Shown piece after piece: positions 7,817 through 39,638 of a stretch of 64,000 nt of DNA. A program made the translations under genes and the position numbers. The notes beneath the pieces are model-generated. The model saw only the letters and a program-made list of their open reading frames with translations, was not told the DNA's origin and searched no databases. Every line of letters begins with the position of its first letter. Positions within the stretch are counted from its first letter, which is position 1. The stretch is from Candidatus Marinacidobacterales bacterium (GTDB taxonomy: Bacteria > Acidobacteriota > Vicinamibacteria > Marinacidobacterales > DATDRI01): assembly GCA_965219415.1 (NCBI GenBank), contig CBDCNP010000002.1, positions 1,120,001 through 1,184,000 of the forward strand, in the 5' to 3' direction.

Positions 7817-7978
7817 GACTTCACCTCGTGGGCGATATTTTCACCCAAAGCAGTTCGCTGAGGGTGCCGCGATGTTACTGAGAGACTTACCAAAGAAGCA
7901 AGTGGTGGGTGCAAAGTGATTTCTTTTCTTTCGCGACCCACTCGTGCTAGGCTCATCGCCCGACGGGGAGGACAGTTG

Positions 7979-22860: not shown

Positions 22861-22978
22861 ACTCCTCGAGTACGGCATGGTGGGCGCCATGATACAAGAA
22901 AAACTTTCAAAGTCGAGCCGGGATTGTACTCGCGAGACCCGCTGCAGTAGGCTCCTAGCCCAACGAAAGGGGGAGGTC

Positions 22979-24394
22979 ATGAGATCTCGGGTAGCGTTCG
23001 TTCTAACTTTGATTCCTATCCTATTCACGGCGGAGGCCGCTCAAGGGCAACCAGGGGTCCATACGGCGAAGACCAGCTCAGAAGTCCTGGCGCTCATACG
23101 AGCGGAAAAACTCGATCTCATTCTGCCGGGTGCTATGCGCGACAACAAAGTCGATATGTGGATTCACGTCACTCGCACCGGCAACCAAGATCCTCTGTAC
23201 CCGCATTTCGGGTACACCGCGGGCTATCTTATTTTTACCGATAGGGGCGACAAGATTGAGCGGGCCGTCTTCGGCCGGGCCGGCGCGGTTCCCGATATCG
23301 ACGTACGCGGTTCCCGCGCCATCGCCCGAGCGATCGAGGGCTACGATTATCGAACCCTGGACTTCTCCGTTTACGACGAGCTCAGGGACTTCGTGGCGGA
23401 GCGCGATCCGCAAACGATCGCGGTCAACTTTTCCGATTGGCTCGCGATAGCAGATGGGATCTCTTACACCCAATACAAAAAACTGGAAGAGATCCTGGGC
23501 CCCAAGTACTCCGAGAGAATCGTGTCCGCGGAAAACCTGATCACCGATTTCAGGGTGAGAAGGACTATCAGAGAAGTGGCTGCATTTATCGAGGCACTCG
23601 AGATTCATCGTCAGATCCTCGAGCGTTCTTTGTCGAATGAGGTGATCACGCCGGGCGTGACAACCCGGGCGGATGTCGGTTGGTGGGTCAAGGAACAGTT
23701 CTTCAAGCGCGGTTTGACCCAGGGATTTAGAACCAGGGTAGGGACGCCAGGTGTCATCTATTCAGCGGTCTCGGACCGAGACACAACACGCTCCCCCGAC
23801 TACGTCTTGCAACGAGGGGATTTTCTCTCCTTCGACAACGGAGTCCGGTATCTGGACTACTACCAGACGGACTACAAGCGCAATGCCTACATCATGAGGG
23901 AAGGCGAAACCAGTGTTCCCGCCCCCATACAGCTGGCCTACGACCGAGCGATCGCGGCACGCGGGATTATCCGGCAGCACGTCAAGGTAGGCAAAACGGC
24001 GGGACAAACGTTGGAAGATCTCATCGCCGCGTTAAAAGATGCAGGCTATATCTACACACCCTTTACCGATCGATCCCCGGAAGATTATGAGAACCTACAA
24101 AAGGCGCTAGCCAACACGGACAAGTCCGGATTTTCCATCGATCTCCACAGCGAGGGAAACAGAAATGGCGGCTTGGAAACGCTCGGGCCATCCATCGCAG
24201 CATTTCGGCGGGACCGCGATGATTTAGTGGTCCAGGAGAATCATCTCTTTTCGCTAGAGTTCTTGGTCAACACCAACCACCCCGATCGGCCAGGTTTTCC
24301 GATGGTCCTCAACATCGAGGGCAATCACATCGTATCGAGCCGGGGAGTGGAGTTTCTTCATCCACCCAATGAACGAATCTTGCTGATCCATTGA
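22979..24394 (+). CDS. Secreted M24-like paralog 5
   Basis: GGGAGG RBS, signal peptide; SFD..QTD, DLH, SLE, NIEGN. Confidence 0.85.
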   Translation: MRSRVAFVLTLIPILFTAEAAQGQPGVHTAKTSSEVLALIRAEKLDLILPGAMRDNKVDMWIHVTRTGNQDPLYPHFGYTAGYLIFTDRGDKIERAVFGRAGAVPDIDVRGSRAIARAIEGYDYRTLDFSVYDELRDFVAERDPQTIAVNFSDWLAIADGISYTQYKKLEEILGPKYSERIVSAENLITDFRVRRTIREVAAFIEALEIHRQILERSLSNEVITPGVTTRADVGWWVKEQFFKRGLTQGFRTRVGTPGVIYSAVSDRDTTRSPDYVLQRGDFLSFDNGVRYLDYYQTDYKRNAYIMREGETSVPAPIQLAYDRAIAARGIIRQHVKVGKTAGQTLEDLIAALKDAGYIYTPFTDRSPEDYENLQKALANTDKSGFSIDLHSEGNRNGGLETLGPSIAAFRRDRDDLVVQENHLFSLEFLVNTNHPDRPGFPMVLNIEGNHIVSSRGVEFLHPPNERILLIH

Positions 24395-24414: not shown

Positions 24415-25880
24415 CTAGTGTATTAGGAACACTTCCTCGTTGGGTGGCTGAATGAACTCAACGCCCTTGCTGGTTATGAGCTGGGGATTCGAAATGTTGA
24501 AACACAGCGGGTAACCGGGTCTTTCGGCAATGTTCATATGGACCATGTACTCGAAAGCGAATAGATGGTTCTCTTGGATCCTCAAATGGTGCGTGTCGGG
24601 CCGAAACCCCGACATGGAGGGTCCGATAACTCCGTTTCCCATGCCGGCGTTTCCAAAACTGTGATTGTCAATGGAAAAGCCGGCTACGTCAGTTCCTTTG
24701 TTAGCAAGCGCTTTCTGCACCAGCAGATAATCTAGCGTGTTCTTGCCGTTGGCAGTCAATCCTCGTGAATTGATGAAAGGCGTATATATGTAGCCCTTTT
24801 CTTCCATGGCTTTGACCATGGCATTCAAAGATTCCCCGGCGGTCATCCCGACCTTCATGTGGTCCCGCATCATCCATTGACCTGCGATCGCCTTGTCATA
24901 GACCCTCTGCAAAAAGTCGGGCACCTTTGTCTCACCCTCCCTCAAAATATAGGCATGAATCTTGGTATCGACCCCGAAGCCCATGTAGTCACCCCCAGGA
25001 TCGCCGCCACCGCCTACAAATAGATCGCCACGCTGAAGAACGTAGTCGGGGTTATGAATAAACCATCTGACGTCGGGGGGCGATATGTCTACCGTTTTTT
25101 CGGGTGGGTTGACCGCCGAATAGTAAACCCGGGCGTTGATGTCGGCGATTGTGGTTACTCCGGGGACGACTTTCGATAGCCTCTCTAGGGCCCGCTGGCG
25201 AGCCAGCGCCAAAACTTCGACCTGTGCCGCCACTTCTCTGCTCGTTCTTCTTATTACGAAGTCTGAGATGACCTTCTCTGCCGATACAATCCTCGAAGAG
25301 TATTTGGCGCCCAAGATTTTCGTCAACCGCAGGTACTCAGAATACGAAATCCCATCTGATTGGACGATCCACACGGACGTGTTGACCGCGATCGTTTTTG
25401 GATCACGTTTAGCAACAAACTCCGTGAATTCGTCGTAGACATCGGGCTCTTCCCTGGGATAGGGAATGTAGACATAGCCCGCCTCTTCGCCATATTCCTC
25501 TGACACGCGAAATCCTTCACCCTGAGGATCAATGGCCCGCGCGAAGTCGGTGGAGCCGCGTACGTCGATTCTTTCAACGGCCCCTTCTTCGCCAAAGACA
25601 GCCCGTTCGATCCGGTCCCCTAGGTCCGTGAAAACCAGATAACCCCAGGTACTGCCAAAAACTGAGCCAGCGGATCCGGGTCTCCGTCACGAGTGACGTG
25701 AATCCACATGTCCACGTCGTTGTCGCGCATAGCACCCGGCAGAATCAGGTCGAGTTTGTCGTTTCTCATCAGGCGAAGCGCTTCCACGTCGGTCTGCGGC
25801 GTACGTGCGGGTAATTGTGCTTGGACCGTAGACACGGTGAACATCGAAGAAACGAGAAATACGATGGTTCGGAAGACCAT
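24415..25880 (-). pseudogene. Secreted M24-like paralog 6 with one frameshift in a T homopolymer (possibly a sequencing error)
   Basis: Adding one T to CAGTTTTTGGC (~25660) joins the 86-aa N-terminal ORF to the 363-aa ORF through GSTWGYLVFTDLGDRIERAVFG. Confidence 0.8.
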
Positions 25881-25898: not shown

Positions 25899-26819
25899 CT
25901 AAACTGATATTCCTGACGAGGATTCCCAACCAGCCGACAAGTCCCGAGCCATTAAGAGCTCTCGGTGTGTCTGAAGGATCTCTTCGGTATAGTCCCTATC
26001 TATCTCGTCGGCCTCGACGGCTCGAATGAAGTTCGCAATCAGGGCGGCGTACTCGACTGGCTCATCTTCAGGTGCCGGCTTCGGCAGATCGGAGTCAGGA
26101 AAGCTTCCTTCGTCGGCATCGATTTCCAAAACCAGATCGGAGTCGGAATCACCGCGTAGATCGGTGCCGGCAACAATCTCGACGCCGCTCGGAAGAGTCC
26201 CGGATAGCGCTACGTTGAGCGGGTAGTCTGCCGAAGCATCGGAGTGAGTCGCACTGGCCTGCAGGTTTTTCAAAGGCCTGCCATCGGCATCAGCCAGCCA
26301 GCGAGCAAGATCGAGTGTGTGCACGCCCAGGGTGAAGAAACTGCCGCCGGTGATGTCGAGTTGTCGGGTCCAATCCTTGTCGTCGGCGAGCTGATCTATA
26401 CCCAGCACGTAAATGCATTTTACGCGTCTCAAGTTCGAGATCCGCGACTTGATCGCCAACAGCTTCGGGTTCCATCTCAAACGATAGCCGAGGTGAACCG
26501 GCACCCTGAGGTCATCAAATGACCGCTCGAGGTTTAGAAGCTCGCTTCTGGAAATGCAAAGCGGCTTTTCGACGAGTACCGGCGTGTCGGCCTCAATCGC
26601 TTGCAGACAAAGCCGGGCGTGCAAGTGGTTGGGAACAGCAACTGTAATCGCGTCCACGTGAGGCAACATATCCTTCAGGTTCTGAAATACGGGCACGTCT
26701 AGATCCAAATGTTGTCGCCGGGAAACAACGCCACCCAGTTCGGCGCCGTTGGGAGCGAAATGAGCCGCATGGTCGCGAGCGATTTCCCCCCATCCCACAA
26801 TCCCGATTTTCATGCCCAT
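25899..26819 (-). CDS. Gfo/Idh/MocA-family NAD(P)-dependent oxidoreductase
   Basis: KIGIVGWGEIA, AVPNHLH, VLVEKP, GGSFFTLGVHTLD. Confidence 0.9.
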   Translation of the reverse strand: MGMKIGIVGWGEIARDHAAHFAPNGAELGGVVSRRQHLDLDVPVFQNLKDMLPHVDAITVAVPNHLHARLCLQAIEADTPVLVEKPLCISRSELLNLERSFDDLRVPVHLGYRLRWNPKLLAIKSRISNLRRVKCIYVLGIDQLADDKDWTRQLDITGGSFFTLGVHTLDLARWLADADGRPLKNLQASATHSDASADYPLNVALSGTLPSGVEIVAGTDLRGDSDSDLVLEIDADEGSFPDSDLPKPAPEDEPVEYAALIANFIRAVEADEIDRDYTEEILQTHRELLMARDLSAGWESSSGISV

Positions 26820-26856: not shown

Positions 26857-27555
26857 TCAACCGGGAAACGCCACGACTTGCGCCGTCGCGCCACAAAAAC
26901 GGTCCACCACTTCCTTGGTGATCGCGAAATCCTTCTCGTGTCGCACCGCATCGTGCACGGTGGTCGATTCGACGATGAGCAGCGCCCGCTTCGTGTCGAC
27001 GGTAACCTTGCTGAAGTCGGCTTGCAACGAGTCGAGCCGGCAGATGACGCGGTTCTCGGCGTCCACGTATCCGAATTCGCGGGCATGGACTGTTTGGTCT
27101 CGTTGGCTCCCTAGCGGTCGAAAACTCTCGTTCCCCCGGAAAAGGCGTAACTCGACAGGAAGCGCAAGGCGGTCGAGGTCATGTGCCCCGAGGCTGTTCC
27201 GAGTGAGCAGAGAGACAAGGTTATAGGCATCGACCAGATTGTTTACCTCCGGAAGCCTGCGGCGCTTCCAGGCAGATTCGAGCAGTTTTTGCGTCGAGGG
27301 TGGATGGCTACGAGGTTTCACGCCAACTCTGCGCAAGATTTCGTGGTGTTTCCTGAGTTCCGCGATAGAGCGAATCTCCGCCGGGCTGGCGAATTGGCCA
27401 CGAATCCGTTGAACCTCGTCGTCGATCTGCGCACGAAGCTCTTGCGAGGCCGCTGTGATTTGTAGGCCTTCGAGCACGAAAGCGCCTGCCCGCAGGCCGA
27501 GATCCATGCATTCTTGTGACACGAGAAACGAGCTCATAGAAGCCGCATCTGGCAT
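26857..27555 (-). CDS. Standalone B3/4 (PheRS-beta editing-like) domain protein
   Basis: GVKPRSHPPS, LPEVNNLVDAYNLVSL, GAHDLD, ESFRPLG, EFGYVD, ICR. Confidence 0.88.
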   Translation of the reverse strand: MPDAASMSSFLVSQECMDLGLRAGAFVLEGLQITAASQELRAQIDDEVQRIRGQFASPAEIRSIAELRKHHEILRRVGVKPRSHPPSTQKLLESAWKRRRLPEVNNLVDAYNLVSLLTRNSLGAHDLDRLALPVELRLFRGNESFRPLGSQRDQTVHAREFGYVDAENRVICRLDSLQADFSKVTVDTKRALLIVESTTVHDAVRHEKDFAITKEVVDRFCGATAQVVAFPG

Positions 27556-27583
27556 CTCTTCTTCCCGATACACTGACCGAAAA

Positions 27584-28783
27584 TCAGGCGGATACCGCGG
27601 CCGCCGCCTTCTCGCCGACCAGTCGATTTTCGCGAAAGCGGTTGTAATGGAAGACTCGGATATTCTTCGGCACCCGACCGCTGGCGATCATCTTGGCGCT
27701 GTTCAACCCACTGGCCGGCGCGGCCTTGAACCCGTATGTTCCCCAGCCGCAATTAATGTAGAGGTTTTGGATCTCGTCTACCGGCGAGATGATGGGGCTG
27801 TAATCGGGCGTCATGTCGCACAGACCTGCCCACTGCCGCTGAACTTTTACGTTGTGCAGAATTGGAAACAGCTCCAGGGTATGCGCGGCGTAACTCTCGA
27901 GGAATCCTAATGTCGCTCGCATTCCGTAATGCGGATAGCCGTCGATGCCGTTGCCACAGACCAACTCACCGCGGTCGGTCTGACTCATATAAATGTGCAG
28001 GTTCGAGCTCACCACCACGTGATGGAGCCAGGGCTTGTAGGATTCGGTAACCAGCGCCTGTAAGGGATGCGTGACCAGCGGGAGCTTCACCCCAATTTGG
28101 TTGCACAGGATCGAGCTCCAGCCCGCCAATGCGGTCAGGAGTTTTTCGCATGCGATGTTGCCGCGATTGGTTTCGACCCCCACTACCCTTCCGCCCTCAA
28201 CCTTCACGTTTCTTACTTCGGTCAAATTGTGGATATCGACTCCCATGCGATCCGCGGCGCGCGCATAGGCCCACACCACCGCATCGTGGCGGATGATTCC
28301 GCCGGGCGGGTGGTACAGCGCGCCGAGAATCGGGTAGCGCGGGTGATCGGAGACATCGATTTCGGGCAGCATCTTTTTTATTTCAGGCGGCGAAAGAATG
28401 TAGCTGTCCACATTCACCGCCTTGTTGATCTCGGCCCGCGTGGTCAAGGTGTTCATCGTCGCCGTCGAGTGGCCCAAGGTAAAGTGGCCCTGTTGGCTGA
28501 ACATCAAATTGAAGTCGAGCTCTTGGGACAAGTTTTCGTATAGTTTCAAGCTCTCGTCGTAAAAACGCACTCCCTCCGGCGTGCGGTAGTTCGAGCGCAA
28601 GATCGCGGTATTGCGGCCCGAACCGCCGTAGCCCACGAATTTGGCTTCCAGGACCGCTATATCCTTGACGCCCATCTTGGCCAGATAATAGGCGGTGGCC
28701 AAGCCATGTGCTCCGCCGCCAACGATGACCACGCTGTAGGATTTCTTGAGCTCGGGCGTGCGCCACATCTTCCCGCTAGCCAT
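27584..28783 (-). CDS. mgdA: N-methylglutamate dehydrogenase / sarcosine oxidase beta (FAD) subunit
   Basis: VVIVGGGAHGLATAYYLA, GSGRNTAILRSNY, RQWAG, CGWGTYGFKA, EKAAAAVS. Confidence 0.88.
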   Translation of the reverse strand: MASGKMWRTPELKKSYSVVIVGGGAHGLATAYYLAKMGVKDIAVLEAKFVGYGGSGRNTAILRSNYRTPEGVRFYDESLKLYENLSQELDFNLMFSQQGHFTLGHSTATMNTLTTRAEINKAVNVDSYILSPPEIKKMLPEIDVSDHPRYPILGALYHPPGGIIRHDAVVWAYARAADRMGVDIHNLTEVRNVKVEGGRVVGVETNRGNIACEKLLTALAGWSSILCNQIGVKLPLVTHPLQALVTESYKPWLHHVVVSSNLHIYMSQTDRGELVCGNGIDGYPHYGMRATLGFLESYAAHTLELFPILHNVKVQRQWAGLCDMTPDYSPIISPVDEIQNLYINCGWGTYGFKAAPASGLNSAKMIASGRVPKNIRVFHYNRFRENRLVGEKAAAAVSA

Positions 28784-29447
28784 GGACGCCTCCCCAATGT
28801 ACCGGCACGCAATCCAGACCGGCCGCCACCAGGCCGACGCCTTTGCCGACATCCATCAAGGCATCGAAGAGACTTTGGGTGTAGTCCCTCCCCTCCAGAA
28901 AAAGGTATCCGTCCACCAACCTGAATACGGTACAGGGGATCAGGTGAACGGTGGTCTGCACGACCGCGCCGGGCGGCAGCACCGCCGGCTGAAGATTCAT
29001 TGCCGAGGAGCGCTCCATCACCTCTTCCTGTTGCGCGCCGCCCAGATACAGCGCACCGAGACCGCCGCTGAGATTGATGGTCGCCGTACCCTGCTCCCCC
29101 ATCTTGGCCATCCAATCCGGGGCGCGTCCCGGTTCACACAGAATTAGATACTCATCCGAGGTGAAGCGAAGGATCGCGCCACCGTCAAAAAGGACGCTCT
29201 TCAGCGGCGGGATCGAAGAGGCGGCGACGTCGATTTTCGAGACCTGTGCGACGGCGCCGGCTCCACGCACCGAAATCTTTCCGATATGAGACCAATCGAT
29301 CAGGACCGATCCTTCCTTTAGCGCCGCGCTTTCGCTTTCGGCCTCACCCAGGCTGAGCGCCACCTCCCATCCGGCCACCTCGGTCATCGGGGCATTGGCG
29401 GCGCGAAAGACCGGCGTCAATGGCGATCTCTTGGCCAGGCGACTCAT
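28776..29447 (-). CDS. mgdD: Sarcosine-oxidase gamma-like subunit (GcvT-like fold)
   Basis: KRSPL N-terminus, DWSHIGKISVRG; start overlaps the alpha-subunit stop. Confidence 0.75.
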   Translation of the reverse strand: MSRLAKRSPLTPVFRAANAPMTEVAGWEVALSLGEAESESAALKEGSVLIDWSHIGKISVRGAGAVAQVSKIDVAASSIPPLKSVLFDGGAILRFTSDEYLILCEPGRAPDWMAKMGEQGTATINLSGGLGALYLGGAQQEEVMERSSAMNLQPAVLPPGAVVQTTVHLIPCTVFRLVDGYLFLEGRDYTQSLFDALMDVGKGVGLVAAGLDCVPVHWGGVHG

Positions 29448-32362
29448 GAGCGCAACTTTCCTCCTTGGGGGTCGTAGGCCGCAAACCCATCCAGGATCTC
29501 CCCGATCACGTCTTGACCACTGGCCAGCCGGATACTCACTTTTGTACCAGGCTTGGCATACGGTGCCTTGACCCAACCCAATCCGATACCGTGACCCAAT
29601 ACCGGACTCATGCGCGAACTGGTCACGCGACCAATGATGTCTCCCCGATCGAGAATGACCACGCCGTCGTCGGGAACCGGCACACCGGGCGCCAGCTTGT
29701 AACTGATCAATTGCTCTTCGATCCCCCGTTCCTTGAAATGAGCGAGGAAGCTCTTGCCTATGAAATCGGGTTTGTCGTCTTTAACCGTAAAGCCAACCCC
29801 GGCCTGATAAGGAGTGGTCAGCGCGTCCGTATCCACCCCCGGCAGAATGTGCCCTTTCTCCAGACGCAGCACGCGCTGGGTCTCCACTCCAAAGGGCTTC
29901 ATGCCGAACGATCGCCCTTTCTCGAGCAGGAAGTCCCACATCGCTTCGCCATACTCGGCCGGATAATGAACCTCGTAACTGAGCTCGCCGGTAAAGCCGA
30001 TGCGAAACAGATAAACCGGCACCTCCTCGATGTGAGTCAATCCGCACGCCATGTAGGAGAAAGCCTCGTTGGACAGATCGATGTCCACCAGCGGTTGCAT
30101 CATCTCGCGCGCCTCAGGCCCGGTCACATTGACCGCTGCCAGAGAGGCGCCCAGATCTTTGACGTGAACATCGAATCCGTCGGTGGTAATCCACCAACGG
30201 AAGTTGTTGTGGATCGCCTCGGCGTTTCCGGTGGTGGTGGAGATGAAGTATCGGCCTTCGGCGACATGCGAGATCGTCCCGTCCTCGGTCAGGATGCCGT
30301 CCTCATCGACCATGGTGTGGTACCGAACTCTTCCCACTTTCAGCTTGGCGTACTTTCCGGGCATCATGAAGTGCAGAAACTTTTGAACATCAGGCCCTGA
30401 GACTTCGAGCTTGCCCAACGTGCCTACATCGATGATCGCCAGGCCCTCGCGAACCGCCACCGCCTCGTCCTCGGTGCTGGTATAAGTCTCCGGGCGTTTC
30501 CACAACCCGGCGAGCAGGAATTTGGCCCCTAGTTTCTCGTGACGATCATGCATCGCGGTACGGCGCACCGGAACGAGATGCGGCGCTCGACCGGCTAGAA
30601 CGCCAAAGGAGACCGGGACCAAGGGAGGGCGCATGGTGGTCGGAACGCCATCGGAATTCTTTTCGCTGCTATCGAGGACGGCGAGGCGAGCCGCGGCTTC
30701 ATAACAGGTCTTACCCTGGCAATGTCCCATCCCCATGCTGGTGAAACGCTTCAACGTCTCGATCTGATCGTAGCCTTCGGCTATCGAGGCCTGCGTTTCC
30801 TTGCGCGTCACGTCCATGCATTTGCAGATGAAATGTTTGTTTCCACCGCAATCGATGTCTGGTGGCAGAGCCTGGATGCACTCGTTCGGCTCCCGCTTGC
30901 TTTCGCGCACAGGCGCACGATGCGCTGCGGCTTTGCCGATGTCGGTGCCCTCCTGAATCAGCCTAGTGAAACCCGCATGCCCGTTGACTTCGCCGGCCGC
31001 ATAGAGACCATCCGGCGGATCGGAAACCCTGAATACGGCCCGTTCCTCGTCCCAGCGAGGGCGATTGCGCCCCATGGCCAGGAGTCCCAATTGAGGGGTC
31101 AAGCCCACCGCCAAAACGAGAAGATCACATGGGAGCGTTTGTGAAGCTTGTCCATCGAGGGGCGGTGCCGCGCCGAAGCCTTGGCGAAGGAGGGGCCCTA
31201 TGCGAACCGAGGAGACCCGCTTGGAACCAAGGGCGGCGTGCACGGTTTGACCGCGAAGGATCGTGACACCCAAAGCGTTCACTCTTTCCGCAAAGTAGCC
31301 TGATGGATTTTCGCGGGCATCAACGACCGCAGCGATCTCAACCCCCGCCCCCTTGAGAAGGTAGGCGCAGTGGTATCCACCGTCGTGGGTGGTCACGATA
31401 ACCGCTCGCCGGCCGGGCACGACGCCGTGCAGGCCAATCACCCTCTCAACACCCCGCCCGGTCATGATGCCGGCCAGGTCGTTGTTCTCGAAAACCAGAT
31501 GTCGGTCGTTGGCACCGCCAGCTACAACAACCGCGCTAGCCCGGATCTTGAACAGGTCGCTGCCGTTCTCGGCGGCCACCAGATTGTCTTCGTAGACGCC
31601 AAACGCAAGCGTGCCGGCGAGCACTTCGATCTTCCCTTCCTGCTCGACCTGATCAATCAGTTTTGTGACGGCCTTCTGCTCGGTTCGGCCGTTCAAGGAT
31701 TCATCGGCGCAGCCCTCTACAATCGAGACGTTGTAGCGGGCGTGTCCCCCCAGTTGCGGATCGCGTTCGATCAGTAAAACGTCTTTTCCTTCCCGTGCCC
31801 CGGCCAATGCGGCCGACAAACCCGCCGGTCCGGCACCGACCACACACAGATCGGGAAAACGGTAGCGCTTCTCGTACCGTCTGTTGACCTCGCGCCCATG
31901 GACATCAATTTTTCCAAGGCCCGCCGCTTTACGAATCATCGGCTCGAAGAAGGGCCAAGCCCACTTGGGTTTATGAAACATCTTGTAGTAAAAACCGTTG
32001 GGCAGTAGCGGCACGAGCGAATCGTTGATGGCCATCAGATCGAATTCGACCGAAGGCCAAGCGTTTTGTGTTTCCACCTGTAAGCCCTCTTGGGCCAGAA
32101 CGCGGTCGGCCAGCAGATTGGGCGCCCCGTCGACGGTAACTAGCGTCTCGGCACCATAACCCTGGTTGTCGTAAAGGCCACGCGCGCGATGGTACTTGAA
32201 GCTTCGCGAGAAAATGGTGATACCAGATGCAAACAGGGCCGATGCGACGGTGTCGCCTTCCATGAAGCGAATCGGTTTTCGGTTAAAGTGAAAGACTCCG
32301 ACGGATTCTTGTCGCGGTAGCGACAGGTAGGGGTGCTCGGACAAACGATTACGCGCAGGCAT
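29444..32362 (-). CDS. mgdC: N-methylglutamate dehydrogenase / sarcosine oxidase alpha subunit
   Basis: GDTVASAL, SRSFKYHR, GFYYKMF, VGAGPAG, TTMRPP, GcvT-like IDVGTLGK, FTGELSYE, LRLEKGH. Confidence 0.9.
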   Translation of the reverse strand: MPARNRLSEHPYLSLPRQESVGVFHFNRKPIRFMEGDTVASALFASGITIFSRSFKYHRARGLYDNQGYGAETLVTVDGAPNLLADRVLAQEGLQVETQNAWPSVEFDLMAINDSLVPLLPNGFYYKMFHKPKWAWPFFEPMIRKAAGLGKIDVHGREVNRRYEKRYRFPDLCVVGAGPAGLSAALAGAREGKDVLLIERDPQLGGHARYNVSIVEGCADESLNGRTEQKAVTKLIDQVEQEGKIEVLAGTLAFGVYEDNLVAAENGSDLFKIRASAVVVAGGANDRHLVFENNDLAGIMTGRGVERVIGLHGVVPGRRAVIVTTHDGGYHCAYLLKGAGVEIAAVVDARENPSGYFAERVNALGVTILRGQTVHAALGSKRVSSVRIGPLLRQGFGAAPPLDGQASQTLPCDLLVLAVGLTPQLGLLAMGRNRPRWDEERAVFRVSDPPDGLYAAGEVNGHAGFTRLIQEGTDIGKAAAHRAPVRESKREPNECIQALPPDIDCGGNKHFICKCMDVTRKETQASIAEGYDQIETLKRFTSMGMGHCQGKTCYEAAARLAVLDSSEKNSDGVPTTMRPPLVPVSFGVLAGRAPHLVPVRRTAMHDRHEKLGAKFLLAGLWKRPETYTSTEDEAVAVREGLAIIDVGTLGKLEVSGPDVQKFLHFMMPGKYAKLKVGRVRYHTMVDEDGILTEDGTISHVAEGRYFISTTTGNAEAIHNNFRWWITTDGFDVHVKDLGASLAAVNVTGPEAREMMQPLVDIDLSNEAFSYMACGLTHIEEVPVYLFRIGFTGELSYEVHYPAEYGEAMWDFLLEKGRSFGMKPFGVETQRVLRLEKGHILPGVDTDALTTPYQAGVGFTVKDDKPDFIGKSFLAHFKERGIEEQLISYKLAPGVPVPDDGVVILDRGDIIGRVTSSRMSPVLGHGIGLGWVKAPYAKPGTKVSIRLASGQDVIGEILDGFAAYDPQGGKLRS

Positions 32363-32388
32363 GAGTCTCTAGAACTAGCCCTGATGCG

Positions 32389-32652
32389 TTACGTCGGACG
32401 ATCCTCAAACCAGAAACTCTTGTGGTCCACATTATTGGCCGTATCCCGCTCAACCAAAAACCAACGCTTGCATCCCGAGCGGTGAAACCACCACTCCACT
32501 TGCTTGCCTTTCGGATTGCGTGCCATGTACACGTAGTCGGTCCATTCATCGAATGGCGCCTCCGGCTTCGGCCGCGGACAGTATTCGCCGCGAAAGGCAA
32601 ATTCGCCCACATGTCGTTTGCCGCAATTCGGGCACATCAACATGAAGCTCAC
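32389..32652 (-). CDS. mgdB: Sarcosine-oxidase delta subunit
   Basis: CPNCG..EF, YVYMARNPKG, EWWFH..GC..W...ERDT (Cys3His Zn site). Confidence 0.9.
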   Translation of the reverse strand: MSFMLMCPNCGKRHVGEFAFRGEYCPRPKPEAPFDEWTDYVYMARNPKGKQVEWWFHRSGCKRWFLVERDTANNVDHKSFWFEDRPT

Positions 32653-33995
32653 GCTGGCTCTTTCCCTGGATACCAGTCCGTACCGGCCAGCGGGATCTTG
32701 GCCATCGCTGCGGCCTCCAAGGTCAAGGCCGCAAGATCCTCCCGCTCGAGATGGTGCACGTTGTTCTTCCCGCAGGCCCGTGCCAGCGTCTGCGTTTCCA
32801 ACGCCAGGGTCTTGAGATAATTTCGGACGCGGGTCGTGGCCTGGGCCACGTCGAGGCGGCGTTCCAGATCCGGGTCCTGTGTCGTGATCCCCGCCGGACA
32901 CCGCCCGGTCTCGCAAAAATGGCAGGAGCCGGCCCGCGTACCCAACCGCTCATAGTCGGACTCCCACTCCGGGACGTCCCAATTGCACCCCATTGCAATC
33001 ATGGCGGCCTGACCGATGGATACCGCGTCGGCGCCCATGGCAAGGGCCTTGGCCACATCCGAGCCGGTGCGGATACCGCCGGAGACAATCAACTGCACCT
33101 TCCGATGGAGATTCAACTCTTGCAGTGCCTCCACCGCTAGACGGACCGCGGCCAACGTGGGAATCCCGGTGTCCTCTATGAAGCAATCCTGAGTCGCGGC
33201 GGTGCCGGCCTGCATGCCATCGACCACCACGGCATCGGCACCGGCGTGGCAGGCCAACGTGACGTCGTGCCAGACCCGGGTGGCTCCGAGTTTGACGTAG
33301 ACGGGGATGCGCCACTGGGTAATCTCTCGCAGTTCTTCAATCTTGATCACCAGGTCGTCGGGCCCCGTCCAGTCCGGATGCCGACAGGGGGAACGCTGAT
33401 CGATCCCCTCCGGCAATTTGCGCATACCGGCCACGCGCGGACTGATCTTGTTCCCGAGCAGCATGCCGCCGCCGCCGGGTTTGGCTCCCTGGCCCACGAC
33501 GACTTCGACGGCGTCCGCCTTTCTGAGGTCCACCGGATTGAACCCGTATCGGGAAGGCAGACATTGGTAGATGAGAATTTTGGAGGCCTTCCGTTCCTCC
33601 GGCGTCATGCCCCCGTCTCCGGTGGTGGTGCAGGAGCCGGCCATGTTCGCGCCACGACCGAGGGCTTCTTTCGCGTGAGCCCCCAGCGCTCCGAAACTCA
33701 TGCCGGCGATGGTGATCGGAATGTCCAGTTCCAGCGGCTTCTCAGCGAAGCGCGTCCCCAGAACCGTCTTAGTCGAACAGGCCTCTCGGTAGCCTTCCAG
33801 CGCATAGCGGCTGAGGGAGCCGGTGAGGAACGTTAAATCATCGAAGTTGGGGATTTTTCGCTTGGCGCCCATGCCCCGAATTTCGTAGCGCCCGGCCTCG
33901 GCGGCACACCGAATCCAGTCGACCTTGCCGGTCGAATAGGTGAAATTGGAAACTCCCGCCACTTTCGGGGGGTGTGCGTCCGCGTTTCCACTCAT
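32649..33995 (-). CDS. mgsC: N-methylglutamate synthase FMN subunit (GlxD)
   Basis: IAGMSFGAL, TTGDGG, GQGAKPGGGG, RHPDWTGPDDL, SGGIRTGSD, CHFC..GRCP. Confidence 0.92.
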   Translation of the reverse strand: MSGNADAHPPKVAGVSNFTYSTGKVDWIRCAAEAGRYEIRGMGAKRKIPNFDDLTFLTGSLSRYALEGYREACSTKTVLGTRFAEKPLELDIPITIAGMSFGALGAHAKEALGRGANMAGSCTTTGDGGMTPEERKASKILIYQCLPSRYGFNPVDLRKADAVEVVVGQGAKPGGGGMLLGNKISPRVAGMRKLPEGIDQRSPCRHPDWTGPDDLVIKIEELREITQWRIPVYVKLGATRVWHDVTLACHAGADAVVVDGMQAGTAATQDCFIEDTGIPTLAAVRLAVEALQELNLHRKVQLIVSGGIRTGSDVAKALAMGADAVSIGQAAMIAMGCNWDVPEWESDYERLGTRAGSCHFCETGRCPAGITTQDPDLERRLDVAQATTRVRNYLKTLALETQTLARACGKNNVHHLEREDLAALTLEAAAMAKIPLAGTDWYPGKEPA

Positions 33996-34008: not shown

Positions 34009-34683
34009 CTAGTATGTCTGACTCTTCTCGGCGTCGAAATGGTAAAGCGTCTTTGCCGATGCGACCCGTTGGAACGACTTCGGATCCAAATCGATATCGG
34101 CCTCTTTCAACAGCTTGGCCAATGTTTGATGATCTGCCTTCTGCATCTTTTCGATCCGAGCGTCGGCGCCGAGGTTCGCAATTTTTCCGCGAACATAAAT
34201 GACCGCCTCGTACAGGCTGTCACCCAGGCCATGTCCCGCGTCCCCGCAAACCACGATGTGACCGACTTGCGCCAAGAACCCGCACATGTTGCCCACATCA
34301 CCCCCCACGACGATGTCCCCACCCTTGAGGGCAATGCCGCACCGAATCGAGGCCTGCTTTTCGATGATCAGCAACCCGCCGTGTGCCGACGCCCCGGCGG
34401 CCGAGGAAGCGTATCCTTTTACTCGCACCCGACCCGACATCATATTCTCCGCGACACCGGGCCCCGCGTTGCCGTGAATCGTGACATCGGCCTGCTGATT
34501 CATGCCGGCGTAATAGTAGCCACCATGCCCTTCGATCGAGACCTCGATGGCCCGCTCCAAACCTACGGCCAGATTGTGCCGGCCATCGGGGTGCAATATG
34601 CGCACCCGCGCGCCTTCCTCCAGGGCCCCTAGGCGGCGGTTTATTTCGCGCGTGGAAAGCTCGGTGCAATCTAGCGTGACCAT
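34009..34683 (-). CDS. mgsB: N-methylglutamate synthase GXGXG subunit (GlxC)
   Basis: HNLAVG, GYYYAGMN, GVAENMMSG, GDSLYEA, LYHF. Confidence 0.92.
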   Translation of the reverse strand: MVTLDCTELSTREINRRLGALEEGARVRILHPDGRHNLAVGLERAIEVSIEGHGGYYYAGMNQQADVTIHGNAGPGVAENMMSGRVRVKGYASSAAGASAHGGLLIIEKQASIRCGIALKGGDIVVGGDVGNMCGFLAQVGHIVVCGDAGHGLGDSLYEAVIYVRGKIANLGADARIEKMQKADHQTLAKLLKEADIDLDPKSFQRVASAKTLYHFDAEKSQTY

Positions 34684-35567
34684 ACGTAAATCTGCTCCGG
34701 CATGGGCTCAAAGGTTTCGGCTTCCTGGATCCCCGGCAGGCGAGCCAAGGCTCGAAATTCGGTTGCGCACGCGACGTAGTCGTCCGTCTCCGCCACCACC
34801 AGGGGCTTGCACGCGTAGGTGTCGCGGAGAACCGCAAATTGATCGCGCAGCCCGATGGCCAGGGTGAAGAACCCTGAGAAGCTGTCGATCATTCCGCGCA
34901 ACGCTTCCTTCAGGGACGCGCCGTCACCGAGCCGCCATTGCAGATAGCGAGCCGCCACTTCGGTATCGTTCCAACTATCGCAGGCGATCCCTTCCCGAAC
35001 TAATTCGCGCCGGATGGTATTGTGATTGGCATAGGAGCCGTTGTGCACGACACACAAATCCTTCCCGGCGGTGAACGGATGGCAACCTTCTAGATTGACG
35101 GCCGATTCCGTGGCCATGCGCGTATGGCCAATCATGCAGTTACCCTCCATACTGGGTAGCCCGTATCGTTCGGCCACGCTGGCTGGTGCCCCCACGTCTT
35201 TGTAGATCTCCATCTCTACACCCTGGCCGCTCATGCGAACCACTGGCGCCTCGGCCGCCAAGCGCCGACGCACCTCCTCAGCAGGCTCTTGCGCGACGAG
35301 AATCGCAAACCGGCCCACGGTTCGAAACCGTCCTTCCTTCTTTGCCGTATCGGGGAAAGCGTCCCGCACCGCGGTCCAATCGAATTCCACGTTGGGTGCA
35401 GAAAGCGAATACTTGATGTGACCTGCATCGACGGGTTGGCGATAAACCGCGACCCCGGCGGAATCCGGTCCGCGCTCGGTCATGGCTTCCAGCATCGGAG
35501 TGAACAGGGCGCCGAGCTCGGGACGCAAGGTGTCGGTGCGGGTGAAGAGGCCGACGATGCCACACAT
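34671..35567 (-). CDS. mgsA: N-methylglutamate synthase Ntn amidotransferase subunit (GlxB)
   Basis: MCGIVG, RGPDSAG, GHTRMATES, VHNGS, NDTE. Confidence 0.92.
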   Translation of the reverse strand: MCGIVGLFTRTDTLRPELGALFTPMLEAMTERGPDSAGVAVYRQPVDAGHIKYSLSAPNVEFDWTAVRDAFPDTAKKEGRFRTVGRFAILVAQEPAEEVRRRLAAEAPVVRMSGQGVEMEIYKDVGAPASVAERYGLPSMEGNCMIGHTRMATESAVNLEGCHPFTAGKDLCVVHNGSYANHNTIRRELVREGIACDSWNDTEVAARYLQWRLGDGASLKEALRGMIDSFSGFFTLAIGLRDQFAVLRDTYACKPLVVAETDDYVACATEFRALARLPGIQEAETFEPMPEQIYVWSR

Positions 35568-35576
35568 GGGAGCGCC

Positions 35577-36920
35577 CTAATAGAACTCCAGATAGCGTTG
35601 CACTTCCCAGTCGGTGACGTCCCGGTGGTAGTCGATCCACTCCTGGGTCTTCAGGTCGATGAACTCCCTGGTCAGAGCCTTGCCAATCCCTTCCGCGATC
35701 ACTTCGTCAGCTTTCAGGGCTTCCAGCGCTTCCCAGAGGCTTTGTGGCAATGTGCCGATGCCCAGCTCGGCGCGTTCAGCGGCACTGGTTTCGTAGACAT
35801 TGATGTTGTGCGGCTTGCCCGGATCGAGCTTGTTCTTGACCCCATCCACTCCAGCCGCCAACACCGCCGCCATCATGAGGTAGGGGTTGGCGGAGCTATC
35901 GGGGCTGCGCAGTTCCAGATGATTCCCACACACCCGCACCATCGCCGTTCGGTTGTTGTCGCCGTAACAAATGTAAGCGGGCGCCCACGTCGCACCCGAG
36001 GCAGTGCCACCAACCACCAGGCGTTTGTAGGAATTGACGGATGGGCAAGTCAACGCGGTCAACGCGGGAGCATGGGCGAGGATGCCGCCCATGAAATGGT
36101 AGGCGAGGGAGGAGAGGCCCATTCCCTTGGCATCCGCATCGTCGTGAAATGCATTTTTTCCATCTTTGACGAGCGAGAAGTGCATGTGCATGCCGTTGCC
36201 GGTGCGGTCGGTCATCGGCTTGGGCATGAAACTGCAAATCATGCCGTGCTTCCGGGCGATCGCGCTGGCAGCCATCTTGAAGAGAATGTAATGGTCGGCC
36301 ATGGTCAGGGCATCGGTATAGGTGAAGTTGATTTCGAACTGCCCGTTGGCGTCTTCATGGTCGATCTGGTACACATCCATGCCGCAGGCCACGATGGCGC
36401 GAGTGAGCTCGGCGATGAAGACGCTGCTGCGATTGAGCCCGTCGTAGTCGTAGCAAGGCTTGTCCAACACATCATCGTCATCCGCCGGTGAGACCCGGCC
36501 CGAAACAGGATCTTTTTTCACCAGGAGGAACTCGGGCTCCAGCCCGGCGTACAGCTCGCATCCCAGGTCTCTCTGGGCTTTTTCGAGCGCTCGACGGCAA
36601 ACGGTGCGGGCATCGTATTCGTAGGGCTTGCCGTTCACGTACCCGTCGCACGCAATGCGCGCGAAACCGGGCATCCAATCGATCTTGCGCAGGGTCGACA
36701 GATCGCCGCGGGCCATGAAGTCCGGTCCGTGCGGTCCCATCCCCAATCCCCACACCGCGAACCCGGCGAATCCGGCGCCGTCCTCGACCACCATGCTCAG
36801 ATGTTTCGCTGGTACGGCTTTGGTCTTGGCGGCACCGTGGATATCCACGAACTGCGCAAGCACGAACTCAATCCCGTTTTCCGAGATGTACTGTTCAGCC
36901 TCTGACAAGGTCGTCATCAT
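35577..36920 (-). CDS. gmaS: Gamma-glutamylmethylamide synthetase (GlnT-type GS homolog)
   Basis: AQFVDIHGAAKTKAVP, GAGFAGFA, KPCYD, DHEDANGQFE, SGATWAP, NNRT; adjacent to mgsABC. Confidence 0.92.
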   Translation of the reverse strand: MMTTLSEAEQYISENGIEFVLAQFVDIHGAAKTKAVPAKHLSMVVEDGAGFAGFAVWGLGMGPHGPDFMARGDLSTLRKIDWMPGFARIACDGYVNGKPYEYDARTVCRRALEKAQRDLGCELYAGLEPEFLLVKKDPVSGRVSPADDDDVLDKPCYDYDGLNRSSVFIAELTRAIVACGMDVYQIDHEDANGQFEINFTYTDALTMADHYILFKMAASAIARKHGMICSFMPKPMTDRTGNGMHMHFSLVKDGKNAFHDDADAKGMGLSSLAYHFMGGILAHAPALTALTCPSVNSYKRLVVGGTASGATWAPAYICYGDNNRTAMVRVCGNHLELRSPDSSANPYLMMAAVLAAGVDGVKNKLDPGKPHNINVYETSAAERAELGIGTLPQSLWEALEALKADEVIAEGIGKALTREFIDLKTQEWIDYHRDVTDWEVQRYLEFY

Positions 36921-37049: not shown

Positions 37050-38075
37050 ATGCTAAAGCAGGCTCATCCGATTCCGGGCTCCGACACCGCCACCCTAACC
37101 CCGACCCAGGCCCGCATCCTTTCGGCCTTGTCGCTGAACGCCCGGGCGCCCTATTCCGAGATAGCCGAGCAGTTAGGTGTCTCGCGGCAGGCCGTCAAGT
37201 ACAACCACGACTTGCTGCTCTCCCGGGGGATCATCGAGTCGCACTACGCCCTGCTCAACATCGTCAAACTGGGCCTTTTATACCATCGGGTCTTCTTGCA
37301 TGTCGCCAACATCTCGCCTGCCGCAGAGAAGAAATTGATCGAGTACTTCCGTCGGCATCCCAACGTGGGCTGGGTCGTCGAACAAGATGGCCCTTGGGAT
37401 CTAGCGCTTGCGGTATGGACACGCAGCATGACGGCGTTCGAAAAGGTGCTGGATGACATGATGTTCAAGATGGGGCGCCAGGTCGACGAAAAGCGGGTCT
37501 CCTATTCGGCCCGCATCTACCACCTGAAACACAAATTCCTGACCCAGGAGACGAACCTCGGTGCCCTGGAGGTCGGTGGCGAAGTTGCAGAGGTCGCGCT
37601 GGACGATACCGACTACGAGGTGCTCGGGGTCCTCACGCAAACCGGTCGCAAATCTTTCAGCGAGATCGGGGCCCACCTGGCCATCAGTCCCAAAGTGGTG
37701 GAGTACCGTACTCGCCGCATGCTCGATTTGGGTGTCATCCTAGGCTTCAACGTGAAGCTGAGCCACGGGCGCTTGGGATACACTCACCACAAGATCCTGC
37801 TCGAACTAACTTACGTATCGAAGCAGAAGATCGCACAGCTCGTTCGACACCTAAAACAGCTCACCTCCACCGTTTGCATTACTCGGTCGATCGGGTTCTC
37901 GGACTTGGAATTCGAGCTCATGGTCCGCTCCAACGCCGAATTCAATGCGGTCATGAAGGACTTGCGGTACACCTTTCCCGATCTCATCCAGAACTACACT
38001 TCCTTCATTATCCTAAAGGAGGCCTACATCAATTACCTTCCGGCAAAAAAACAAGTTGGTGATGCGGCGCCGTGA
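37050..38075 (+). CDS. Tandem (double) Lrp/AsnC transcriptional regulator
   Basis: Two HTH+RAM units: ARAPYSEIAEQLGVSRQAV..KLG..GPWDL and GRKSFSEIGAHLAISPKVV..RLG..GFSDLE. Confidence 0.88.
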   Translation: MLKQAHPIPGSDTATLTPTQARILSALSLNARAPYSEIAEQLGVSRQAVKYNHDLLLSRGIIESHYALLNIVKLGLLYHRVFLHVANISPAAEKKLIEYFRRHPNVGWVVEQDGPWDLALAVWTRSMTAFEKVLDDMMFKMGRQVDEKRVSYSARIYHLKHKFLTQETNLGALEVGGEVAEVALDDTDYEVLGVLTQTGRKSFSEIGAHLAISPKVVEYRTRRMLDLGVILGFNVKLSHGRLGYTHHKILLELTYVSKQKIAQLVRHLKQLTSTVCITRSIGFSDLEFELMVRSNAEFNAVMKDLRYTFPDLIQNYTSFIILKEAYINYLPAKKQVGDAAP

Positions 38076-38148: not shown

Positions 38149-38250
38149 GCAACGCGCCCATGCAATATGCAATCAGCCCTCGATTCGTCATTGCATACAA
38201 TTTCACGTTTCGAATAGAGTGACGCGGACGGGAGCGGGACAGAGATTGAT

Positions 38251-39638
38251 ATGACGGACGAACTCAGTGCCCTGACGGTCGTGTTCACCGAGTTCTACTA
38301 CTGGGTGACGGTCGTAATCATGTTCTTGATTCACGTCGGGTTTTGCCTTTACGAGGTTGGCGTCTCTCGGGAGAAGAACAAGATCAACACGCTGATGAAG
38401 AACGCGATGTTGATCCCCATGATCACGGTGGGGTTTTTCTTGTTTGGGTGGTGGTTGTATTTCGCGATGCAGAACGGGCCGGGAATCGGCGGCAACGGTG
38501 AGCTGAAGTCGGCCCCCTGGGCGGCACCCACGAGTGAGCTCATGGGTGCCCACTTGGGCGGCCAACCCGCCGACGAAAACCTCACGACCGAAGACACGGC
38601 GACCTGGGCCCGACTGAACGGCGTGTTCTGGGCCGCCTTCCTGCTCTTCTCCTGGACCGCCGGATCCATCCTTTCCGGCGCCGTGATTGAGCGGATCCGT
38701 TCGGGTACCTTTTGGGTACTGGCAGTCCTGGTGGGATCGGTCACTTGGGTAATCGACGCTGCCTGGGGATGGTCGGACGGCGGCTGGATGGTCCAGAGGC
38801 TCGGCTACCATGACGCGTACGCCTCGGGAGTGATCCATGGCTTGGCCGGTGGATCGGTGCTCGCGATCTTGTGGCATTTGGGACCCCGCATCGGCCGGTT
38901 TCGAGCCGACGGAAGTCCGCGCGACTTCCCCGCCCACAATACCTGGATGGTCGCCATCGGAATGTTTCTCATCTATACCGGCTTCTGGGGCTTTTACGCC
39001 GCCTGCAACGTGCCTATCCTCGATGTCGATCAGGGCGAAGGAGTCGTCTTTTCGGCGACGACGATTTACCTCACGCCCACCACGCTGAGCGCCATCACGT
39101 TCAATTTCCTGATGTCGCTGGCGGCCGGATTCATTGCCGGGTATTGGATTTCGAACGGCGACGCTTTCTGGACGTTTCAAGGCGGGTTAGGCGGGATCAT
39201 CACCGCCTCGGCCGGCAACGATCTCTACCATCCGTACCAGGCTTTTCTGGTGGCCGCGGTGGGGGTGTGCTGCGCTTATAAGCTGCACTTTTGAGTGGAA
39301 AGGAAGTTCAAGATCGATGATGCGGTAGGAGCGGTCGCAATCCATGGATACTGCGGCTTCCTGGGCGTGGTCATGGCCGGCTTCTTGCTGTGGGCCTACC
39401 CTAGCTCCCCGTACGAAGGCTTCGCGCCGATCACTCCATGGGGGCAGCTCGCCGGCGCCATCATCATGTTCTTCGTACTGGGATTTGTGCCCTGCTTCGG
39501 GCCGCCGGGTTGGCAAAGAGGGCCGGCGTCTTACGGATTCCGCCCGAAGTCGAAGTCGCCGGCTTGGATCACGTGATCGCCGAGAACGAGGCCACCGCGT
39601 CCGCGAAGCTGGCATCCGCAGAGCGCGCGGCCGGTTAG
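38251..39638 (+). pseudogene. amtB: Amt-family (methyl)ammonium transporter with in-frame TGA and a 3' frameshift
   Basis: GFCLYEVG, SGAVIER, WGW, DAYASGVIH, GPRIGRF, DDAVGAVAIHG. Reads LHF-TGA-VERKF at 39292-39294; frame change at ~39500. Confidence 0.85.

Follow-up and report, generated by a model that had tools for sequence, protein, structure and literature searches.

The window (the whole stretch of DNA analysed, 64,000 nucleotides of contig CBDCNP010000002.1 from a Candidatus Marinacidobacterales bacterium, assembly GCA_965219415.1, positions 1,120,001 to 1,184,000 of the forward strand) contains a run of methylamine-utilization genes that is closed by a gene for a stand-alone B3/4 domain protein, a candidate aminoacyl-tRNA deacylase of the CtdA (canavanyl-tRNA deacylase) family. 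This gene is located on the minus strand at 26857..27555, within an open reading frame (ORF; 26857..27573) that encodes 238 aa from a GTG codon. Pfam B3_4 (PF03483) was the sole Pfam family recognised in it (E 3.3e-19; 69.6 bits for a cut-off of 29.3), and NCBIfam returned only the pheT model TIGR00472, at 20.3 bits for a cut-off of 402.65. Two ATG codons are candidate starts. The ATG at 27555, which is preceded by a purine-rich run, gives a protein of 232 aa and a gap of 28 nt after the upstream stop, and a 99% identical protein (P0001) is also 232 aa long. The ATG at 27537 gives 226 aa and a gap of 46 nt, and corresponds to the start used by most orthologs.

In the order of transcription, the run reads gmaS, mgsA, mgsB, mgsC, an 87-aa ORF, a SoxA-like, a SoxG-like and a SoxB-like gene, and the B3/4 gene, all on the minus strand. 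Both gmaS and a three-gene mgsABC set were recognised: gmaS (35577..36920) encodes a type III glutamine-synthetase-like gamma-glutamylmethylamide synthetase (TIGR03105, 606.7 bits for a cut-off of 469.6), and it is followed by the genes for the class-II amidotransferase subunit (mgsA, 34671..35567; GATase_6 and GATase_7), the GXGXG subunit (mgsB, 34009..34683; PF01493, E 1.5e-9) and the FMN glutamate-synthase-like subunit (mgsC, 32649..33995; Glu_synthase, E 7.1e-95, 58-71% identity to genes of related clusters) of N-methylglutamate (NMG) synthase. Genes resembling those for the alpha, beta and gamma subunits of a putative N-methylglutamate dehydrogenase were also recognised, all of them scoring below the cut-offs of the sarcosine-oxidase models: the SoxA-like alpha subunit (mgdC, 29444..32362; GCV_T, SO_alpha_A3 and Fer2_4; TIGR01372, 718.7 bits for a cut-off of 1164), the SoxG-like gamma subunit (mgdD, 28776..29450; GCV_T, E 1.9e-17; TIGR01375, E 1.5e-10) and the SoxB-like beta subunit (mgdA, 27584..28852; DAO, E 2.3e-66; TIGR01373, 460 bits for a cut-off of 529). 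The place of the delta subunit (mgdB) is taken by the 87-aa ORF (32349..32612), assigned by position, which matches no Pfam or NCBIfam model and overlaps the SoxA-like start by 14 nt. We take this gene set to be the NMG route of methylamine use.

An earlier reading of the same DNA, made from the sequence alone (hereafter the sequence-only reading), had placed the B3/4 gene 28 nt after mgdA and in the direction of the gmaS-mgsABC-mgd run. The spacing holds with the start at 27555 and the common direction is confirmed. A consensus scan of the gap between mgdA and the B3/4 gene found no promoter- or terminator-like site, which is weak evidence. A search for sequencing runs gave 24, none of them from RNA. 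From homology and gene context we infer the function of the window B3/4 protein, including its hydrolytic activity, the tRNA and amino-acid moiety that it would act on and its co-transcription with the operon.

Relatives of the protein were collected from protein, genome and metagenome sets. Matches at E <= 1e-3 numbered 855; the 120 matches listed all carry PF03483, and these relatives are 52-99% identical to the window protein. JGI metagenomes contained 405 relatives. The genome scan yielded 33 loci, of which 18 near-full-length orthologs (L006 to L023, 44-69% identity) were used, a 90-residue fragment (L024) and 14 distant or partial hits being set aside. In the metagenome sample 80 loci, many of them short, were kept. 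The pooled set comprised 105 ortholog copies, excluding the window's own copies and one duplicate, and at least four of its metagenome contigs repeat genome contigs. Genes in the related loci were called with a greedy ORF picker. In a maximum-likelihood tree the orthologs formed one clade (26 rows) with a support of 100/100; the next relatives found are archaeal and Ktedonobacterales homologs at 25-32% identity.

NMG genes (gmaS, mgsABC, SoxA/B-like or amt) were found within 8-10 kb of the ortholog at nine of the 18 genome loci, eight of these by tblastn and the ninth (L019) from a GCV_T fragment that lies just upstream, where the contig ends, and beside the ortholog at 17 of the 80 metagenome loci. 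The sequence-only reading had proposed to look elsewhere for a link between these B3/4 proteins and gmaS, and linkage to genes of the gmaS pathway is thus borne out. When only loci with at least 5 kb of flank were considered, 20 of 43 were NMG-linked. Grouping at 80% identity gave 66 clusters, of which 29 were uninformative; among the 37 informative ones, NMG linkage was the commonest context (18 clusters), 7 were linked to gltX and 12 had other neighbours.

The NMG-linked orthologs show at least five different arrangements. The gene overlaps a preceding SoxG-like gene by 4 nt (L006, L013) or follows it after 11 nt (L009); it stands between amt and mgsA (L008, L076, L143) or directly before mgsA (L075, L078); it is divergent from amt (L015, L016) or from mgsA (L023); it follows mgsC (L101, L106) or, in the window, the SoxB-like mgdA. 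Proximity to NMG genes has therefore survived repeated rearrangement, which argues for selection on co-expression and against hitch-hiking.

At 11 of the 80 metagenome loci (L084, L093, L094, L098, L104, L105, L109, L115, L118, L135 and L145), gltX, which encodes the glutamyl-tRNA synthetase (GluRS), lies 57-230 nt downstream of the ortholog on the same strand, and in both loci that are long enough (L093 and L109) glnS, which encodes the glutaminyl-tRNA synthetase (GlnRS), follows 0.7-1.2 kb further. The NCBIfam scores were 459.8 and 493.8 bits for gltX (cut-off 289.95) and 772.7 and 758.3 bits for glnS (cut-off 425.8). The GluRS genes of these loci are 74-99% identical to one another, and the loci were therefore considered as one lineage, the nearest genome relatives of which are Gemmataceae metagenome-assembled genomes (MAGs). 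Its B3/4 proteins are 60-73% identical between sub-groups, hence the seven clusters at 80% identity. No NMG genes were found on these contigs within the available upstream flank (up to about 3.7 kb). The 16-site pocket signature of the gltX-linked members, described below, is that of the NMG-linked members, and the shared signature, together with the gltX/glnS context, connects these proteins with the pair of synthetases that would be expected to mischarge Glu/Gln analogues.

The same 11 loci also speak for trans-editing of ordinary charging errors of Glu and Gln (Glu-tRNA(Gln) that escapes the amidotransferase, or cross-charging between Gln and Glu), with the methylamine link arising through disturbed Glu/Gln pools; the presence of both GlnRS and GatB in the window genome and the conservation of the catalytic residues fit such an editor as well. 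We nevertheless consider this explanation unlikely: NMG-linked informative clusters outnumber gltX-linked ones by 18 to 7, all eight carriers of the ortholog in the window's phylum have an mgsC-like gene whereas GlnRS is also found in five of five genomes that lack the ortholog, and an acidic pocket floor (E190 and D120), reasoning from the CtdA papers, would disfavour a glutamyl side chain.

The closest solved protein to the window protein is CtdA. With the single sequence the match to CtdA among chains of the Protein Data Bank (PDB) had an E value of 4.9e-4 (HMMER), and a profile of 55 orthologs brought it to 7.9e-10 for 9f7e and 3.9e-9 for 9mkl. An AlphaFold2 model built from the ortholog alignment (mean pLDDT 96.1) had CtdA as its top Foldseek match over the full length (9f7e, TM 0.83/0.81 over 232 columns; 9mkl, 0.82), at 19-21% identity, whereas PheRS-beta chains reached a TM of 0.47-0.61 only. 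The comparison with CtdA was based on the HMMER alignments to PDB chains and on Foldseek; the tree was built without CtdA-1 and CtdA-2 reference sequences. The ESM Atlas gave only generic B3_4 clusters. A search for fused B3/4 relatives among proteins of 397-2000 aa found none at E <= 1e-10 (weak evidence). In a Methanosarcinales MAG (L036, match 10001-10492), a distant B3/4 homolog is N-terminal in an open frame of 799 aa and may be a fused form.

The B3/4 domain of the PheRS beta subunit shares with the window protein PF03483, the conserved Asn by which the hydrolytic water is positioned, and a recognisable fold, but in pheT this domain is embedded in a multidomain subunit of about 800 aa, whereas the window protein lies outside any synthetase and is devoid of PheRS-type inserts. 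The genome's own pheT is located elsewhere (L001, G000:C3:197763-198281, an 818-aa frame).

In CtdA, Y104 and N105 are next to the ester bond. Activity is lost when Y104, N105 or E191 is mutated (PMC12268091), and likewise when G116 or Q173 is (PMC12449066). E118 and E191 form the negative pocket floor that binds the guanidinium group, the pocket being shaped by G116, C166, Q173 and I189 and lined by W158, W169, W187 and I189 (PMC12449066, PMC12268091). Residue correspondences were read from ungapped HMMER blocks to CtdA. Eight CtdA residues are retained, all of them invariant or at least 90% conserved in the alignment of 55 orthologs: Y104 (clade Y105, at least 90% conserved), N105 (N106, invariant, and present in all 60 family rows), S108 (S109), G116 (G117, invariant), C166 (C166, invariant, a hallmark of CtdA-1), Q173 (Q172, invariant), I189 (I188, invariant) and E191 (E190, replaced by Gly in a subclade from one Acidobacteriota family, f56). 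Six are changed: E118 corresponds to H119, G117 to A118, N119 to D120, W158 to Y157, W169 to L168 and W187 to L186. All 62 near-full-length rows have His119, and 49 of these 62 show the complete 16-site signature. The acidic floor pair of CtdA (E118 and E191) is thus not kept in the clade, only E190 being matched. Basic residues (R69, K74, K91/R92, R167 and K177) align with the CCA-binding patch proposed for CtdA. On these alignments, the residues related to chemistry are kept and the side-chain pocket is rebuilt. The residues that place the water in CtdA and bacterial PheRS are retained along with the basic residues of the CCA patch, and on this ground the protein is taken, as a prediction, to be an active deacylase.

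Asn106 and Ser109 are present in every one of 60 stand-alone B3/4 homologs compared, whereas the pocket positions fall into discrete signatures; the window genome itself encodes pheT and four stand-alone B3/4 paralogs, each with a different signature. Judging by these patterns, the stand-alone B3/4 family looks like one that diversifies by substrate. The other paralog loci are at G000:C3:1342551-1342946 (L002/L039), 3104694-3105110 (L003/L040) and 1697343-1697720 (L005/L041). The first (L002) has a CtdA-like GGED / CRW / E pattern. The second (L040) follows DAO-type and Pyr_redox_2-type oxidoreductase genes, in a cluster that is flanked by transposase genes. The third (L041) lies among housekeeping genes, with ispF and a SpoU methylase gene nearby and pth about 6 kb off.

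Like CtdA (9F7E of P. canavaninivorans, 9MKL of S. enterica; CtdA-1), the window protein stands alone, measures about 230 aa and has the complete fold with its CtdA-type insert; the two have in common the catalytic Tyr-Asn pair, the Ser, Gly, Cys166, Gln and Ile residues and the second floor Glu. Their genes are also placed alike, in that ctdA too accompanies a pathway by which an amino-acid analogue is degraded: in two bacteria it immediately precedes the canavanine-catabolic operon (PMC10018355). One might accordingly take the window gene for a true ctdA ortholog, encoding a canavanyl-tRNA(Arg) deacylase, or, given that the downstream genes are not conserved neighbours and that the end of the operon is variable, for a passenger gene unrelated to its neighbours. 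CtdA is its closest solved relative, with which it shares five of the six residues listed for the S. enterica CtdA pocket. Either possibility is nonetheless very improbable in our view. The protein is no more than 19-21% identical to CtdA; all members of its clade carry His in place of the guanidinium-binding E118, Ala and Asp stand for G117 and N119, and the three cavity Trp are replaced by Tyr, Leu and Leu; and a separate CtdA-like paralog (L002) is present in the same genome. The neighbours of the clade are methylamine/NMG genes or gltX-glnS, and not canavanine genes or a guanidine riboswitch: no Rfam family, and hence no guanidine riboswitch, was matched in the window between 20000 and 42000 (gathering thresholds) or, at E <= 0.01, in five related loci (L004, L093, L109, L094 and L135). 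The taxa of the clade, Planctomycetota and Acidobacteriota, are outside the phyla named as the main holders of CtdA in PMC12449066. The suggestion of the sequence-only reading that the gene could be an unrelated one appended to the operon does not sit well with a recurrent, rearranged synteny with NMG genes and gltX, which is not expected of a passenger.

A second group, CtdA-2, is described as uncharacterised, is found in Chloroflexi, Bacillota and archaea, and has been suggested to have a different substrate (PMC12449066). The window clade resembles it in consisting of stand-alone B3/4 proteins for which another substrate is suggested, but CtdA-2 is defined partly by the absence of C166 (PMC12449066), whereas the window clade retains Cys166 and is separated in the tree from the archaeal rows, with a support of 100/100.

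The evidence tips slightly in favour of trans-editing: the B3/4 protein would deacylate tRNA charged with a Glu/Gln analogue that the pathway makes, N5-methylglutaminyl-tRNA(Gln) being the most likely target. As a CtdA-family deacylase, with the B3/4 fold and the CtdA-type insert, it would hydrolyse the aminoacyl ester with the assistance of the Tyr-Asn pair and select its substrate through the rebuilt side-chain pocket. It would be made together with the methylamine (gmaS-mgsABC-mgdABCD) pathway and would clear tRNA charged with a Gln or Glu look-alike arising from this pathway, the most likely substrate being gamma-glutamylmethylamide (GMA, N5-methylglutamine) on tRNA(Gln). The mischarged species might come from mischarging by GlnRS or from the use of methylamine in place of ammonia by GatCAB, both of which are conjecture; GlnRS and GatB are present, so that the two routes are open. 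To our knowledge, the Gln and Glu synthetases have no editing domain.

The pocket bears on which of the pathway's compounds would be recognised. With His119, Glu190 and Asp120, and with Leu168, Leu186 and Ile188 lining the end of the cavity, it would suit an uncharged end group that is capable of hydrogen bonding and tipped with a small hydrophobic moiety, and so, we infer, the N-methylamide of gamma-glutamylmethylamide better than the carboxylate of N-methylglutamate. The sequence-only reading had proposed a guard against mischarged methylated Glu and Gln alike. Its Gln half, removal of GMA from tRNA(Gln), is favoured by the synteny with NMG genes and gltX/glnS, the retained CtdA catalytic residues and the changed pocket; its Glu half, removal of NMG from tRNA(Glu), is disfavoured by the acidic pocket floor. 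We propose only tentatively, and with less conviction than the deacylase assignment itself, that the clade would be the first known case of proofreading dedicated to the Gln/Glu arm of translation: it would deacylate N5-alkylglutaminyl-tRNA(Gln) and in this way guard the proteome from gamma-glutamylmethylamide, which the cell itself accumulates when it uses methylamine.

The close spacing to dehydrogenase genes at some loci suggests a further explanation without any tRNA, in which the protein would be an accessory subunit of the NMG pathway or a small-molecule binder or hydrolase (binding GMA or NMG, or acting as a partner of the SoxBDAG-like dehydrogenase). Start/stop overlaps of 4 nt with the SoxG-like gene and the 11-nt gap are typical of subunits that are made together, and the same-genome paralog L040 also follows DAO-type and Pyr_redox_2-type genes. 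Against this, the same clade with the same signature occurs upstream of gltX/glnS with no NMG genes in the available flank; the full CtdA fold, the catalytic Tyr-Asn pair and the basic residues aligned with the CCA patch are kept; in family f56 the gene lies on another contig than mgsC or about 1 Mb from it; and binding of free canavanine was not measurable for CtdA by its authors (PMC12268091). An accessory subunit or small-molecule role is thus judged improbable.

Co-occurrence was examined in 401 genomes of the window's phylum, using thresholds of E <= 1e-49 for the ortholog and E <= 1e-80 for the mgsC-like gene. The ortholog was found in eight genomes (the window genome and seven of family f56) and the mgsC-like gene in 19, which include all eight ortholog carriers; the 382 genomes that lack an mgsC-like gene all lack the ortholog as well. 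Where the ortholog is unlinked (nine genomes), an mgsC-like gene is present at another place in eight (48-71% identity), G404 being the exception. GlnRS was found in the window genome and in five of five other ortholog-bearing genomes, and GatB in the window genome. Presence of GlnRS was tried as a discriminator and failed, since it was found in 6/6 ortholog-bearing genomes and in 5/5 without the ortholog.

Several observations weigh against an editor of pathway-made analogues. The co-occurring genomes are close kin and represent only two or three independent lineages, so that the two-by-two table overstates independence. Eleven of the 19 genomes of the phylum with an mgsC-like gene have no ortholog, and those with an mgsC-like gene but without the ortholog in which GlnRS was sought had it in five of five cases. 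In a second phylum (Planctomycetota, that of L007's genome; 400 genomes, this chosen centre being excluded from the count), the mgsC-like gene is found in eight genomes and the ortholog, at E <= 1e-40, in none. Three NMG clusters were inspected (G754, G190 and G367), and no B3/4 gene was found within a 20-kb stretch at any of them. Since most of the sampled NMG clusters are without the gene, it is regarded as accessory and not as a required part of the pathway. About one third of the informative clusters (12/37) are in unrelated contexts: dnaA/dnaN, DUF1501/PSD1, an enolase-superfamily and Zn-ADH pair, or an aminotransferase and a DoeB/AstE-like gene. The 4-nt overlaps with the SoxG-like gene suit a dehydrogenase subunit equally well. 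The E118Q variant of CtdA is inactive, and His119 could therefore mean a different chemistry or a loss of activity, and not only a new specificity. Finally, no paper was found on GlnRS accepting gamma-glutamylmethylamide.

The last of the unrelated contexts is that of family f56 (L018, L020, L021 and L022; G088-G260), in which the unlinked ortholog is part of a block made of a divergent class I/II aminotransferase gene, the B3/4 gene, a gene for a protein of about 408 aa and one for a DoeB/AstE-like deacylase. Two pocket changes, S81A and E190G, distinguish this subclade, and its specificity may have shifted with them.

The CtdA family and the logic of encoding a deacylase next to the pathway concerned are already known from papers of 2023-2025, in which a second group of unknown specificity is already flagged. 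Canavanyl-tRNA(Arg) is the only known substrate of stand-alone B3/4 deacylases; the CtdA authors consider other specificities possible but undefined (PMC12449066). In a literature search that left subscription journals and supplements aside, no paper was found that connects any B3/4 or CtdA protein with the methylamine/NMG pathway or with GluRS/GlnRS, and no report of tRNA charged with gamma-glutamylmethylamide or theanine; the sequence-only reading had likewise stated that it knew of no description of the link with the NMG pathway. A comparable arrangement, in which an organism that makes or metabolises a near-cognate amino acid encodes a dedicated deacylase, is that of fluorothreonyl-tRNA deacylase (INS superfamily; cited in PMC12449066), which differs in having an INS/YbaK fold unrelated to B3/4 and in serving another tRNA system.

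The clade is thus a concrete candidate for a second specificity among stand-alone B3/4 deacylases, on which two independent genomic pointers agree: a pathway that makes Glu/Gln analogues and the synthetases that would mischarge them. In contrast to CtdA, for which the threat is a plant toxin, the presumed threat here is an intermediate made by the cell itself. If the proposal is true, translation would be threatened by an ordinary intermediate of catabolism, as well as by toxins from outside, strongly enough to select a dedicated editor; the N-methylglutamate pathway would carry a hidden cost in mistranslation, and a quality-control step would be added to a globally important route of methylamine turnover. 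Bacteria would then have recruited CtdA-type deacylases as specificity-tuned modules for different catabolic pathways, and the natural pocket variants (Glu to His, Trp to Leu) would be of use for understanding or engineering the specificity of the deacylase scaffold.

The window B3/4 protein nests (100/95) among sequences of Planctomycetota MAGs (64-69% identity), although its host genome groups with Acidobacteriota. The other genes of the cluster are unevenly related to Planctomycetota versions (mgsC and amt about 70-80% identical, gmaS about 48%, the SoxA-like gene about 35%). From these comparisons, the nesting and the uneven identities suggest that the window NMG cluster is a horizontally acquired mosaic.

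Upstream of gmaS, on the plus strand, are a divergent AsnC/Lrp-type regulator gene (37050..38075) with two helix-turn-helix (HTH) units (HTH_24 and HTH_AsnC-type, two stretches each) and an Amt-family gene (38251..39626; TIGR00836, E 5.2e-32), probably for a methylammonium transporter. An in-frame TGA at 39292-39294, beyond which the conserved Amt sequence goes on, and a frame change near 39500 interrupt the latter gene; tblastn with the L008 Amt homolog aligned 38218-39498 in frame 1 and then 39504-39626 in frame 3. Amt homologs in related clusters are about 490 aa long and 71-82% identical. The window gene may be a pseudogene or reflect a sequencing error.

Downstream of the B3/4 gene, the Gfo/Idh/MocA gene and the M24 paralog that the sequence-only reading had described are both present on the minus strand, the former at 25899-26813 (PF01408, E 2.3e-17) and the latter as an M24-like ORF at 24415-25506 (weak Pfam match, E 0.0032, below cut-off; 37-52% identity to three window M24-like genes and 25-26% to two more). 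Neither adjoins any ortholog in related loci, and both were rejected as parts of the system. The M24-like copy at 24415-25506 looks split, the N-terminal 80 or so residues of its paralogs matching separately at 25629-25865. Seven paralogous M24-like regions (creatinase/prolidase fold) are found in the window, at 6458-7828(-), 10760-12031(+), 17520-18866(-), 22877-24394(+), 24415-25865(-), 39915-41345(+) and 62316-63548(-). Two aldo/keto-reductase genes, at 16489-17517(-) and 49788-50819(-), are 69.6% identical.

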